From Escherichia phage teqhal, in sequence record MN895435.1: a stretch of 64,000 nt of DNA; one strand, 5' to 3'. Positions 17,259 to 63,603 of this stretch are shown here, in pieces. The position numbers and the translations under genes are program-made. Below the pieces are notes generated by a model. The model searched no databases and was not told the origin of the DNA. It saw only the letters and a program-made list of their open reading frames with translations. Positions within the stretch are counted from its first letter, which is position 1, and each line of letters begins with the position of its first letter.

Positions 17259-20200
17259 TTACATAAGTTTAGATTCAAGTTCTTTTACACGAGAAGAAAG
17301 CGTTTTCACAGCTTCAACCAGAAGAGCAATCTGGGCTTGAGAAGAAACAGTGAGTATTTTATTACCCTTGCTGTCTTCTGTTTCACGGACGGCTTCTGGT
17401 AAAACGTCTTGTAACGTTTGAGCTACAATACCCGCTTCAGTTTCAATTGCCTCTCCACCGATGTATTCAGCTTTATCATAAATGACACCATTGAGTTTTT
17501 CAACTTTATCAAGTGCATTTTCGATAGGTTTGAAATTAGATTTTAAGCGAATATCAGAACGAATATAAACGTTTGGAGCATTTATATTTTTATATGAGTA
17601 CAAATCACCGTTTTGGAAACGGAATACTTGTACGCTGTTCGCATATATGTCTAATAATCCATCGCCATTTTGCTTAATACCAGTATCGCTATCACCAAAT
17701 GCTATACTATTTCCACCAAGTGCGTTATTGATATTAATACCAAATGAATTCATTTGGTTAACACCAGCTACAGTAGCATTATTTACTACAAAGCGGTTAG
17801 CTCCACCTGGAGCTTTTTCAAAGTAAGCAATATAGTTAGTTTCATCGGCAATTTCAATACGGTTACCACGAGAAGCATCGCCAGCATGAAATATTCTCAT
17901 ATTTCTTGGGTTAGCACCAGACTTATCAAAGTTAATAGAACCATTATCTTTGACATTTATGCTATTATAGAATAAAGCAGCACTGCGAACAGCTATGCCG
18001 TTATTCATTAATACTTCACCGGTTGTTAAGTTAATTGCGAAAGGACGCTTACTATTCCAATCACCGTTAACAGTTGCTTCGCCATCGGTGGCATTTTTAT
18101 CTGTAAACAGAATATAAAAACTACTGCCATCATTTCGTAGCATTGTAGCAACAGAACCAGTTTTATCGCTGTTGCTTCTAATACGAATACCAGTTTGGTT
18201 ATTAATAGCTATTTCAGAATCGGCTTCATAACGCTTAACTTTGCCGCGATCAACCAAGTTATTAAGAACATTAGCAACTTGCCCATCAACTGCTGTATCT
18301 GGAAGAGCATCCACAGGTGATTGGGTAGATGAGTTAATACCAATAACGCTAACAGTAGCATTTTCGGTACATGACCATTCACAAGTTAATTGATTGCAAT
18401 ATGTTCCGGCATAAACATAAATGTCATATGTATCTCCAGAGACGTTATTAACTGCAATATTTTTAAATGCAGCTGCAATTGTTCTTGTGTATAATACAGC
18501 ATTTAAGTCAGCAGGTCTTTCATTACTAGTACGTAAAACAATTTCAGCAATATTGCATTGTGTGAATAATCCACTATTAAATCCAGAACCACCGGCTATT
18601 TTAAAGAAGACCGTAGAAGTGGATTGTGGCATTGTTACTGTTGCAAACTTATACCATCCAGCAGTTGCTCCATAAGTAATAAATCCAGAATTAACTTTAC
18701 GATTTAGCGTGGTGTTTAAGTTAGCAAAGTTTCCTGAACCGCTAGTAATATTACCATCAGTTCCTAGTTGGGCATTTCCGACTTTAAGAGGTTTACTGAT
18801 TGACACGAAATTATCGCTTATAACAAGACCGTGTCCATAAGATTGACTATAAAGCGATAAATCACTTCCAGCGCCACCAAGACCAACATACCACGATCTA
18901 GTTCCAGCTTTAGAACCCTGCAAATAATTAGCAGAAGAAGATGAAGGAGAATCTAGAGTAAGCGCTGCATTACGTTCATTAATAGTTACTGGACATATCA
19001 TTTTAATAGTTTTAAGACTATTACTTACTTGTAATAATCCTGTACCAGATCCAGAATCTCCTAAATGAACATCATGCGACATTTTAACTGTGCCGGTGTT
19101 CAGTTCTATTATCAATGGTCTAAGATTACTTATACCGCCAGATTCTCCAGCATCTTTAGGAGTCGGGATAATATAAAGATTTCTTTCTGAGCGACGGAAA
19201 ATAGCACCATATTCGGCATTCCAAATTCTTAATGCATCAGCAGTTCCGCCGATTTTAACTTGTCCAGTAATAGAAGAACCACCTTGGACAAACAAACCAT
19301 TAGACATGGTAACATTACCGACTAAAGTGCTTAATCCATTAACTTTAAAACTTCCGTCAGTAATAATACTTCCTCTAGCATTAACAGCTCCAGCAAACTG
19401 GGTTACAACAGGACCAGTAGTTTCTGAGCCGCTTGGGGCTACACGCTGGGAATAAAAATAATAACCTTGTCCGTCAGCTACTTCAAAAACTGTTTCACGA
19501 TTACGATCGCCAGATGCGTTAAATGAATTACCCCACGCTTTAACAGTTACATAGCTTTTATTCTGACCAGCACGAGTACCGCCTTCCCACAAAATTTGCT
19601 TAGTGCCATCAATTGTAGTAGTTGGAGCGAATGTTAGCCCAGCAGTAGAATTATTAGCTGCTAAATATATGCCGTTATATATTGAAAGCTGCTTAACAGA
19701 TGTAATACCGCCATCAGCATAAAACATTACATTATTAGAGCCAGTTACCAATTTCAAAATACCTGGGTTAACTTCCATGCCTTCTTGAGTATTAATATTA
19801 GTTTTTCCTTTACCACGGAAATAGTGGTTCATTTTACCGCCAGAGTTATATCCAATGTGGGTTTGACCATCTCCAGCAGAGTTTTCATCAGCCTGTGTTT
19901 GAACCGATAAAAAAGCAGCGTTCGTTCCAGGCATAATCCATGTTCCGCCTTGGTCTTCTGAACGTCCAAATAATGCTTTACGAGTACTACGGAAACTGTC
20001 AGGAGTAATAGACGCGATAGAAAGACCATTAGCAACTAAATCATATACACCAGATCTTTTATATGATACACCAGTTGCGGCATCTCCAATGACTATATAG
20101 CATTCACCCATTGCTCCAGTGGAGCCGTAATTATTAATGTTTTCATCTGTTGTAATTGTACCAATTGCGAGTGAGCGTCGCAACACTAAAGACCCATCAT

Positions 20201-21738: not shown

Positions 21739-21746
21739 TATTTATA
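21739..21746 (-). promoter_or_regulatory. late promoter (TATAAATA) for gene 36
   Basis: + strand TATTTATA is TATAAATA on the - strand, about 25 bp upstream of the gene 36 start. Confidence 0.6.
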
Positions 21747-59229: not shown

Positions 59230-59759
59230 TCAAATAATCCAATAATATTGCCAATTCCAGTTATTGGACCATTAGGGCCAGGAATTGCTAAAGTTGTAAA
59301 AATATCATTTGCCCATTTTAAAACGAATGCTGGCATCTCAAGAAAATTAATTTCTTTAACTTCATCATTGACCTTAAGCAAGCATTTAGACAACATATCG
59401 CTCACCGTTAAAAATTGTTCAAATTTTCCAGGAGGTCTAAAATAAAATGTATTTCCTTGGTATTGAAATTCTAATCTTTGGCACACATAAACATCATTAA
59501 TGTCATAAGTATAGCCATCTATTTCTTTACGAGATTTAATCTTTCCATTAAATTCCAATAAATGAATAGAAACGAAATCAACTTCTGCCGGTGATAAATT
59601 CGGACAAATAGAATCAATAAGAAGTTTTAAATTTTCATCAGGACCTTTAACATCTTTTAAAATGTTATAATGCTTAAGACCCATTTTAGGAATAGAAACT
59701 TCTTTATTGCTTATTGGAAGAACTACTTTCTTCAGTGGTAGTATCAGATTTAAATTCAT
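59226..59759 (-). CDS. 28: baseplate hub distal subunit gp28
   Basis: 177 aa, the T4 gp28 length; synteny. Confidence 0.8.
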
Positions 59760-60879
59760 TTTTAACCTTAACTGGGTCTATTGTTTCCAGTTTCGTTGCA
59801 TTAGTGAACATATATAGATGAGTTACTGAATTATTATTGGATAATTCATGGATAACTTCATCAACGTAAAATTCTGTTTTAAATTGGTTTTTACTATCAT
59901 TAAAAATAATTTTAACGCCAGGAGTCAAGTTAAAATTACCGACAGTAGAACATTTAGCATAGCCGTCATATTGTGCCATAGTTTGAAGACGAATAGCTTC
60001 TTCATATCCATTCCTATAAGTCATTTCAGAATAAGCACCTGACCTTGACACTACAATAGAGTTTTCACCCTTTCCTGTAGTAATCATTGGTAATGAAGAA
60101 TCTAAAAATGAATGCGCATAGATAGTAGCGTTTTTCATTGGATCACGTTTGTGAGGATTCGATTTAGTCAACCAAACGAAATCATATGCTAATGGATATT
60201 TTAATTCTTGGACAAATTGACCTATTAAAGATGGCTCACCGACAATCATTGGATATGGTTCTTGATTTATCATCATATCATAGTCCATCATGTTAACTCC
60301 CATGATGTCTTGCCATACAAATACAAATTTGTCGCTTCCTACAGCTAGAGCAACTTCTCTTACATATGACAAATAGTTTTCAAATGTGCTAGTCCATGGA
60401 ATATCAGGAACATAAGCATTTATAGCATTTATTGCTGGAGTTAATAATGTACGGTCTTGATAAATGACACCAAGCATTTCTTTTATAGATTCACCTGCAT
60501 CAGGGAAAAATGGTCTACCAAATTTAAGATTTTCTATAGAATGAATAGTTCCCAATTCAATAGCAATGATGTTATCACCTTTTGAATCTACTGACACGGA
60601 AAAATGCTTACATCCATAAATTCGTGTTTTAACATTATTAATATCATTTGCATTAGCTACAGAAATCTGAATTATTTCATTTCCATCCATTTTTGTATGG
60701 ATGTTTTTAGAATCATAAAATTGCAGCATTCCTTCATTTCGGCCATAAAGAGAATCCCGCATAGTTAATGTAGTAATAGTAGCAGCTAATTCAACAAATC
60801 TATTATTACTCCAAGCGTCGTAGCTATCAAATAATTTAACGCTGAGATTTGGATATCCGGGGCGTTGCAACATACTCAT
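59704..60879 (-). CDS. 27: baseplate hub subunit gp27
   Basis: 391 aa, the T4 gp27 length; synteny. Confidence 0.85.
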
Positions 60880-61628
60880 TATTGTTTATCCTTCTCAATC
60901 AGTTTTAATACGAATCCGCGCTCAGCAGGAATCATTTTCATTATTGAATTTAAGCTATAATTACTTTTTACGAGTGTGTGATTAATTTGATAAAAAGTAA
61001 ATATCTCATCTGGGTTAACTAATAGCTTAAACACGTCTACTATATCAGTGTATTTTTTAATGTACTTATTACAGCATGACATATGTAGAGTTAAATTAAT
61101 AGGATTCATTGCATCGAGAATTTTTTCTAATGTTTCTATCTCGATAGCATCAACAAGTTCTATTTGACTTGATTCACTAATTTCCTTCCAATCATACCAA
61201 ATTTCATCTACTTGGACGGAATGAATATTTTCAGTAATCATCTTTGCTTTATTTTCATAAAACTCAGAAGGAAACTTTAATTTAATTTTAACATTAGCTA
61301 CATCAAAAACAGGTTCCTTTAATTCTTTTTGATATATTTCAAATGGAACTGTCTTTTCTTTTTTACATTTTGGACATACAAATGTGACCGGTACTTTAGT
61401 TTTACCTATTGACCCTACAAATACCTGCAAAAATATAAATGGTTGCCAAGTCTTCGGATAGTCTCCAAAATAATCATCAATTAAATCAGTAATTATTTCT
61501 TTTTGTTCTTGTGGTGACCGATGCTCTATATCGTTTCGAACTAACAAAAAATCTCGATAATCTTCTACCGTAAATGGTTTAAAACGATGAACACCATCTG
61601 GTAATTTACAACGAATAATGTTTGCCAT
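60879..61628 (-). CDS. 51: baseplate hub assembly protein gp51
   Basis: 249 aa, the T4 gp51 length; Cys pairs (CPKC ... CC). Confidence 0.8.
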
Positions 61629-61645
61629 AGATGCTCCTTTTATTC

Positions 61646-61653
61646 TATTTATA
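61646..61653 (-). promoter_or_regulatory. late promoter for gene 51
   Basis: + strand TATTTATA is TATAAATA on the - strand, 18 bp upstream of the gene 51 start. Confidence 0.6.
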
Positions 61654-61657
61654 AATA
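61650..61657 (+). promoter_or_regulatory. late promoter for gene 26
   Basis: TATAAATA 21 bp upstream of the gene 26 ATG; overlaps the divergent gene 51 late promoter within TATTTATAAATA. Confidence 0.6.
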
Positions 61658-61678
61658 TGATAAATAAAGGAGCTAAAT

Positions 61679-62305
61679 ATGTATGAATACAAATTTGACG
61701 TGAGAGTTGGTTCTAAAATAATCAACTGTCGCGCATTTACTCTTAAAGAATATCTAGAACTTATTACTGCTAAAAAGAACGGTTCAGTAGAAGAGATCGT
61801 TAAAAAGCTAATTAAAGACTGTACAAATGCAAAAGATTTAAACCGCCAAGAATCAGAACTATTGTTGATTCATTTATGGGCGCATTCTCTTGGAGAAGTT
61901 AATCATGAAAACTCCTGGAAGTGCACCTGCGGAACTGAAATACCAACCCATATAAATCTATTACATACACAAATAGATGCACCAGAAGACCTCTGGTATA
62001 CACTGGGTGACATTAAAATTAAATTCCGATACCCTAAAATTTTTGATGATAAAAATATAGCCCACATGATAGTATCATGTATAGAAACGATTCACGCTAA
62101 CGGGGAAAGCATTCCAGTTGAAGACTTAAATGAAAAAGAGTTGGAAGATTTATATTCTATCATCACAGAGTCAGATATTGTAGCTATAAAAGATATGCTT
62201 TTAAAGCCTACTGTTTATTTGGCTGTTCCAATTAAGTGTCCAGAGTGTGGAAAAACTCACGCTCATGTAATAAGAGGGCTCAAAGAATTCTTTGAGCTAT
62301 TGTAA
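61679..62305 (+). CDS. 26: baseplate hub subunit gp26
   Basis: 208 aa, the T4 gp26 length; Cys motifs CTCGTE ... CPECGK. Confidence 0.8.
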
Positions 62306-62703
62306 TGGCAAATATTAATAAGCTTTATTCTGACATTGACCCAGAAATGAAAATGGATTGGGACAAAGATGTTTCAAGATCTCTTGGATTAAGGTCAATT
62401 AAAAATAGCCTTTTAGGAATTATTACAACCAGGAAAGGGTCAAGGCCATTTGACCCAGAATTTGGATGCGATTTATCTGATCAGCTTTTTGAGAATATGA
62501 CTCCTCTTACTGCTGATACTGTTGAGCGTAACATTGAAAGCGCAGTAAGAAACTACGAGCCACGTATTGATAAATTAGCAGTTAATGTAATACCGGTTTA
62601 TGATGATTATACTCTAATAGTAGAAATACGCTTTTCAGTCATCGATAACCCTGATGATATTGAGCAGATAAAACTGCAACTGGCTTCTAGTAACAGAGTA
62701 TAA
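62305..62703 (+). CDS. 25: baseplate wedge protein gp25
   Basis: 132 aa, the T4 gp25 length; TAATG overlap with gene 26. Confidence 0.85.
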   Translation: MANINKLYSDIDPEMKMDWDKDVSRSLGLRSIKNSLLGIITTRKGSRPFDPEFGCDLSDQLFENMTPLTADTVERNIESAVRNYEPRIDKLAVNVIPVYDDYTLIVEIRFSVIDNPDDIEQIKLQLASSNRV

Positions 62704-63183: not shown

Positions 63184-63407
63184 TGAAATATAGCATTGAT
63201 GATGCTTTTAATTATGAAGAAGAATTCGAAACGGAAATTCAATTCTTAATGAAAAAGTATAATCTCAAGCGTCAGGATATTCGTATCCTGGCCGACCACC
63301 CATGCGGTGAAGATGTACTTTATGTTAAAGGAAAATTTGCTGGATATCTTGATGAATATTTTTATTCTAAAGATATGGGTATTGATATGCATATGAGAGT
63401 TATATAA
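63183..63407 (+). CDS. hypothetical protein, 74 aa (uvsY.-1 position)
   Basis: TAATG overlap with uvsY. Confidence 0.5.
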   Translation: MKYSIDDAFNYEEEFETEIQFLMKKYNLKRQDIRILADHPCGEDVLYVKGKFAGYLDEYFYSKDMGIDMHMRVI

Positions 63408-63435
63408 ATAGATATATAATTTAGAGGAGACAATC

Positions 63436-63603
63436 ATGTCAGATAAGATTTGTGTTGTCTGTAAAACTCCAATCGATTCTGCATTGGTTGTTGAAACAGA
63501 CAAAGGTCCTGTACATCCTGGGCCTTGTTATAATTACATTAAAGAACTACCAGTTTCAGAAAGTTCGGAAGAACAATTAAATGAAACACAACTTTTGCTA
63601 TAG
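63436..63603 (+). CDS. small Cys-containing protein, 55 aa (uvsY.-2 position)
   Basis: GAGGAGACAATCATG RBS; CVVC ... C cysteines; not in ORF track. Confidence 0.4.
   Translation: MSDKICVVCKTPIDSALVVETDKGPVHPGPCYNYIKELPVSESSEEQLNETQLLL

Follow-up and report, generated by a model that had tools for sequence, protein, structure and literature searches.

Overlapping, oppositely pointing late promoters in the spacer between genes 51 and 26 of a Tequatrovirus and their conservation in T4 relatives

The spacer between the divergent baseplate genes 51 and 26 carries, at 61646-61657, what we consider with a probability of roughly 90% to be a genuine pair of late promoters that overlap, point in opposite directions and are strongly conserved in T4 relatives, with the exact 5' ends of the two transcripts given here as predicted positions. 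All coordinates, unless another record is named, refer to the window, i.e., the whole stretch of 64,000 nucleotides that was analyzed. The first-pass annotation had proposed overlapping divergent late promoters at this site, and the proposal is supported by the match to the late consensus, the spacing to the Shine-Dalgarno (SD) sequences and ATG codons, the invariance of 12 bp among relatives and the annotation of homologous sites. The features of the region, from left to right, are as follows:

59704-60879, minus strand: gene 27, baseplate hub subunit (391 aa), whose start overlaps the gene 51 stop
60879-61628, minus strand: gene 51, baseplate hub assembly catalyst (249 aa; ATG at 61628), heading the leftward late unit
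61639-61634, minus strand: Shine-Dalgarno AAGGAG of gene 51, a purine-rich block kept in all spacers
61640, minus strand: predicted +1 (A) of the gene 51 late transcript, placed by the -13 to -6 rule, with a 12-nt leader; T4 116467 (+)
61646-61657: perfect palindrome of 12 bp, TATTTATAAATA, formed by a pair of late-promoter octamers with the central TATA common to both
61653 (-13) to 61646 (-6), minus strand: late promoter box TATAAATA of P51, for gene 51 and then gene 27, leftward
61650-61657, plus strand: late promoter box TATAAATA of P26 (-13 to -6), for genes 26 and 25, rightward
61659-61666, plus strand: another box close to the consensus, GATAAATA, in T4-type spacers only, at a distance of 12 nt from the ATG of gene 26
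61663, plus strand: predicted +1 (A) of the gene 26 late transcript, placed by the -13 to -6 rule, with a 16-nt leader; T4 116444 (-)
61667-61672, plus strand: Shine-Dalgarno AAGGAG of gene 26, a purine-rich block kept in all spacers
61679-62305, plus strand: gene 26, baseplate hub subunit (208 aa; ATG at 61679), heading the rightward late unit
62305-62703, plus strand: gene 25, baseplate wedge subunit (132 aa), whose start overlaps the gene 26 stop

Direct reading of the sequence bore out the claim that TATAAATA is present on both strands within the 12-mer, and the ORF ends at 61628 and 61679 leave between genes 51 and 26 a gap of exactly 50 bp (61629-61678), as had been noted before. The two boxes overlap by 4 bp at the self-complementary TATA of 61650-61653, and the site therefore has the overlap of opposite-strand core elements that is looked for in a bidirectional promoter. 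Distances of 18 and 21 bp from the boxes to the start codons had also been given; the second stands, with 21 nt between the plus strand box and the ATG of gene 26, and the first is corrected here to the 17 nt that separate the minus strand box from the ATG of gene 51. The mismatch came from mixing two counting conventions, as the coordinate differences are 18 and 22.

The gene names assigned earlier were also correct, given that T4 annotates gp51 and gp26 on the two sides of an identical spacer. All 50 bp of the T4 spacer (AF158101 116429-116478) are the same as in the window, the coordinates being converted as T4 = 178107 - window, and the annotated order in T4 (gp27, gp51, gp26, gp26', gp25, uvsY) matches the order found here. 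The window belongs to Tequatrovirus: the locus is 97.8-98.6% identical to many genomes of this genus, the gene 26 product is 99-100% identical at the protein level to Tequatrovirus gp26, and identity to T4 is 96.3% across the final 4 kb of the window. With the whole spacer sequence identical and the same flanking genes, the promoters are orthologous to T4 P51 and P26 and show no difference of substance from them, the window representing a different Tequatrovirus isolate. Of the genes for gp55, gp33 and gp45, which a phage with late promoters of the T4 type should encode, 55 and 45 are annotated in T4 and fall outside the span of the window, and gene 33 would be expected inside it. The distance from the spacer to oriF is ~1.1 kb.

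Late promoters of T4-type phages are defined by an octamer that precedes the start site by about one helical turn (PMC1524935, PMC2988020), with the T4 box TATAAATA occupying -13 to -6 relative to that site (PMC1524935), and by an AT-rich melting segment directly 3' of the box (PMC2988020). Primary 5' ends of the late RNA are expected ~6 nt past such a box, in dependence on gp55, gp33 and gp45 and on replication. At the 51/26 junction the consensus octamer is exact on both strands, the spacing of each box to its SD and ATG is normal, and the segments from -5 to +2 (TGATAAA for P26 and GAATAAA for P51) are A/T at six of seven positions in each case. Both predicted promoters lie immediately upstream of a late gene on the same strand, i.e., gene 51 (baseplate hub assembly) and gene 26 (hub). 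A consensus scan of 61629-61678 found no sigma70-type promoter, and the spacer holds no further consensus box upstream of gene 51 or gene 26 on its own strand. The near-consensus box GATAAATA was considered as an alternative P26 and rejected as probably non-functional, as its predicted +1 would fall inside the SD and it is missing from all other genera.

Additional TATAAATA boxes of the window with a box-SD-ATG context are found at 21746 (-), 26813 (-), 50824 (+) and 63403 (+). Downstream of the box at 63403-63410 (+) come GAGGAG and the start codon (ATG) of a 55-aa ORF (63436-63603) homologous to uvsY.-2; this box has the appearance of a further late promoter, in this case for a small conserved gene whose function is unknown. 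Separately, gene 26 contains in antisense orientation (61980-61998, minus strand; 0.3 expected by chance in the scanned region) a terminator-like hairpin that has a T-tract, and such a hairpin would halt minus strand transcription running toward the promoter region.

The conservation of the site was assessed by comparing the 51-26 junctions of 13 annotated phages (gp26 identity 27-65%) and of 41 IMG/VR contigs. The divergent 51/26 layout was found throughout the Straboviridae sampled, with spacers of 43-70 bp (47-53 bp in Tevenvirinae). All 49 loci with a gp26 at least 41% identical to that of the window contained the exact 12-mer, in 23 distinct spacer haplotypes. These loci represent Tequatro-, Mosig-, Karam-, Gelderland-, Jiaoda-, Marfa-, Roskilde- and Dhakavirus, together with an Acinetobacter phage; the IMG/VR lineages carry no genus assignment here, and the named genera number at least eight. 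Within the 23 haplotypes, 12 of 12 palindrome columns were invariant, compared to top-base frequencies of 53-58% in the flanks. Since a single promoter needs 8 bp, the invariance of all 12 indicates that selection acts on both boxes. The predicted +1 is an A in every haplotype for P51 (23/23) and in 20 of 23 for P26, which may in part come from the A-rich leader preceding the SD, and positions -5 to -2 are free to vary in the haplotypes of both promoters.

Variant geometries were observed in more distant relatives. In Krischvirus (L012 929-997, L013 934-1003) the corresponding sequence is GTATTTATAAAATACTAAATA, in which the P51 box has no mismatch; on the other strand an extra A breaks the plus strand box, which reads TATAAAATA, with a possible ACTAAATA located 5 nt further along. 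For RB49, Nolan et al. (PMC1524935) predicted no minus strand late promoter near 105-107 kb, where we infer the 51/26 junction of that phage to lie. The Aeromonas phages of Tulane- and Biquartavirus (L014 941-988, L015 940-982, L058) carry a 10-bp palindrome, TATTTAAATA, that provides boxes matching at 7 of 8 positions on both strands and overlapping by 6. At the 51/26 junction of 44RR, no predicted late promoters were listed by Nolan et al. (PMC1524935), the variant palindrome TATTTAAATA evidently scoring below the threshold of their model. Thus, the Krischvirus and Aeromonas phage variants indicate that the exact overlap is not obligatory for the gene pair 51/26. Genes 26 and 51 are co-directional in cyanophage S-CAM22 (L016 974-1872), Sinorhizobium phage phiM9 (L017 962-1833) and Pseudomonas phage Cygsa01 (L018 1072-1982), where, on the same strand, an ORF of ~45-59 aa annotated as gp51 comes after the gp26 homologue. 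From these sequences, a full-length gp51 and the divergent 51/26 layout appear to be specific to Straboviridae.

Homologous promoter pairs have been annotated or predicted in two other genomes. In OL960581 (vB_EcoM_SA20RB), regulatory features at the homologous site mark the two overlapping promoters, and in RB69 late promoters were predicted in the spacer with an HMM as Pl:118620 (+) and Pl:118672 (-) (Nolan et al. 2006, PMC1524935 Additional file 5), the first being the homologue of P51, as the plus strand of the RB69 record carries gene 51. In both cases two opposite-strand TATAAATA promoters with the same 4-bp overlap lie between the 51 and 26 homologues; the entries are sequence-based annotations and not transcript maps, and the RB69 spacer differs in its flanks and in its length of 47 bp. 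Other overlapping opposite-strand late pairs have been predicted in RB69, RB49, RB43 and Aeh1 (PMC1524935). The RB43 pair at ~165.9 kb was considered as a homologue and rejected, as it lies upstream of gene 34, with no divergent junction there.

Additional comparisons can be drawn with other late gene junctions. As at 51/26, the T4 junction of gene 4 (-) and gene 53 (+) has two exact opposite-strand TATAAATA boxes and two mirrored SDs. This 47-bp spacer, located outside the window (AF158101 77338-77384; L061 18439-18485), is ordered CAT TGGATTCTCCT TATAAATA GATAATA TATTTATA AACAGGAGGGCCC ATG. A gap of 7 bp separates its boxes, which are crossed, each lying beyond the start site of the other, whereas those of 51/26 overlap, and its predicted 5' ends at 18463 (+) and 18459 (-) of L061 overlap by 5 nt, whereas the 51/26 ends diverge. 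In Aeh1, the 52-bp divergent spacer between gene 4 and a baseplate tail-tube-cap gene (NC_005260 122786-122837; L062 787-838) contains a back-to-back 14-bp palindrome, TATTTAGCTAAATA. The late consensus of Aeh1 is CTAAATA, and late promoters were predicted on both strands at its gene 4 junction (PMC1524935); TATTTAGCTAAATA consists of two abutting copies of CTAAATA at this other gene junction, in contrast to the overlapping boxes of 51/26.

The arrangement described here would constitute a compact bidirectional late control region, in which two consensus gp55-dependent late promoters stand back to back with their first four bp (TATA) in common. P26, with the plus strand of the window as non-template, would start transcription at ~61663 and direct it through genes 26 and 25, and P51, with the minus strand as non-template, would start at ~61640 and serve gene 51 and then gene 27. 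As the predicted start sites (61640 and 61663) are 23 bp apart and face outward, the two RNAs would not overlap. The open complex of gp55-RNAP unwinds -12 to +2 and reads flipped bases of the non-template strand at -12, -9 and -8 (PMC7892883). The bubbles predicted on this basis are 61651-61664 for P26 and 61639-61652 for P51, with 2 bp (61651-61652) in common, and because they would need these same bp with opposite strands as non-template, only one polymerase should be able to hold the site at a time. The earlier statement that the two promoters share the same site was thus correct, both for the boxes (4 bp) and for the predicted bubbles (2 bp). The accompanying statement that they must compete holds in the steric sense only, in that the geometry of the bubbles would not allow two open complexes to coexist.

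The gp45 clamp occupies the upstream end of the late promoter complex and activates only if its loading started from a break in the non-transcribed strand. By this polarity rule, P26 and P51 would be served by oppositely oriented clamps, with a plus strand break activating P26 and a minus strand break activating P51, and the direction of transcription would be chosen by clamp orientation.

A related layout is known from sigma70 bidirectional promoters (Warman et al.; PMC12825309), where pseudo-symmetric -10-type elements, lying on the two strands of a single short site, drive divergent transcription and one polymerase excludes the other. The preferred separations of start sites in that system are 18, 10 and 23 bp (PMC12825309), the last being equal to the separation predicted for 51/26. 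Unlike the sigma70 promoters, the 51/26 pair depends on the phage sigma factor gp55 and has an 8-bp box and no -35 element; its symmetry is perfect, whereas that of the sigma70 sites is approximate, and it is activated by an orientation-specific sliding clamp, whereas the sigma70 systems use -35 contacts or classical activators.

For sigma70 bidirectional promoters the steric exclusion is real, and competition becomes measurable only at high occupancy (PMC12825309). It is quite plausible, at somewhat less than an even chance, that P51 and P26 are both real and sterically exclusive and yet fire independently at physiological occupancy, with the overlap reflecting genome compaction and the self-complementarity of TATA. 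Such independence would agree with the finding that interference between sigma70 promoters was seen only with one direction strongly activated (PMC12825309), with the retention of the divergent genes in Krischvirus and the Aeromonas phages despite their changed geometry, and with the different, non-overlapping geometry of the divergent late junction 4/53 in T4 itself. Against it, late promoters on replicating T4 DNA are strongly activated by the clamp, so that occupancy could be high (PMC2988020), and the exact 4-bp overlap, in place of one of 2 bp or of unjoined boxes, is invariant in at least eight genera, which suggests that the geometry was selected, although compactness could suffice as the reason.

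The whole spacer was also considered from the side of the RNA. Read-through RNA covering 61626-61684 folds into a hairpin of -13.9 kcal/mol on the plus strand and -12.7 kcal/mol on the minus strand (z-scores of -3.3 and -2.6), in which the SD and AUG of the downstream gene are paired with the complement of the SD and AUG of the divergent gene. By the same folding analysis, RNAs that begin at the predicted late +1 sites are without the 5' arm and their SD is left open. An equivalent gating logic, with a hairpin that hides the ribosome-binding site, is known for T4 genes e and I-TevI. Pairing of the SD follows automatically from the presence of two mirrored ribosome-binding sites; in other lineages the SD is paired in most cases and hairpin z-scores range from -4.2 to +0.2. 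The hairpin was therefore not retained as a selected RNA structure, as conservation does not discriminate in its case. A reading of the ~50-bp spacer as a mirror-symmetric module, combining a direction chosen by gp45 orientation with translation gated by the hairpin, is speculative and, in our estimate, unlikely; we found neither component described for the 51/26 junction. In such a module, the direction of initiation would follow the orientation of the arriving gp45 clamp and hence the strand that carries a nick or primer end. If true, the output ratio between the two hub operons would depend on the direction of the replication fork, and translation would be restricted to transcripts begun at the internal late promoters.

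Two functional late promoters are the preferred reading over the possibility that one octamer alone works and the other arises as a side effect of the palindromic TATA core and of AT-richness, with the second gene being transcribed from elsewhere. Single TATAAATA octamers are indeed not enriched in the AT-rich window (35.6% G+C), where 10 were observed and 10.06 expected, i.e., they occur at chance frequency, and not all of the 50 T4 late sites listed have been proven active in vivo (PMC2988020). This explanation is nevertheless very improbable: 12 bp are invariant where 8 would be needed and the adjacent bases drift, the A at +1 is conserved and the distance to the SD constrained on both sides, and genes 51 and 26 each head a unit of their own in a spacer that lacks an alternative consensus box or sigma70-like promoter.

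Slighter still is the probability that conservation of the palindrome serves mainly the binding of a dimeric protein to DNA, such as the regulator DsbA, and not a pair of promoters. Sites of this kind typically show perfect dyad symmetry, and T4 DsbA was reported to bind with low affinity to AT-rich sites that overlap two late promoters, not necessarily P51 and P26 (PMC2988020). The symmetry is, however, fully accounted for by two consensus octamers, and dsbA is non-essential (PMC2988020). Additionally, the Aeh1 palindrome at another junction uses the late consensus of that phage itself, CTAAATA, and the sequence thus tracks promoter specificity.

A functionless chance occurrence, for which one could cite the appearance of the 12-mer in 6 of 100 window shuffles, is effectively refuted by the conservation of the 12-mer, which is invariant among genera whose gp26 is only 41-65% identical and which falls exactly within the window's single divergent late-gene spacer of 50 bp. 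The expectation is 0.06 12-mers per window, and the 12-mer was counted once in the ~166 kb of T4-type genome examined; the case against a chance origin is strong through its conservation and not its count.

Altogether, these observations identify a promoter pair that is already known in T4 and its relatives, and the finding is no new biology. Divergent late transcripts from overlapping promoters in the T4 base plate cluster were reportedly mapped by Scarlato, Storlazzi, Gargano and Cascino in 1989 (Virology 171:475), and we take P51 and P26 of the hub cluster to be the overlapping pair that they mapped. The reviews PMC2988020 and PMC3014915 contain no discussion of the 51/26 junction, and a T4 dRNA-seq dataset exists (GSE255091; bioRxiv 10.1101/2024.04.04.588121). 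The additions made here are modest, namely the invariance across genera of the 12 bp and of the A at the predicted +1, and a catalogue of variant geometries, and a reader working from the sequence only had correctly spotted a classic T4 regulatory layout. The site represents a bidirectional promoter of perfect symmetry, served by a phage sigma factor and by a sliding-clamp activator that is orientation-specific, and could as such be a convenient natural case for testing how symmetric promoters settle the orientation of the polymerase.
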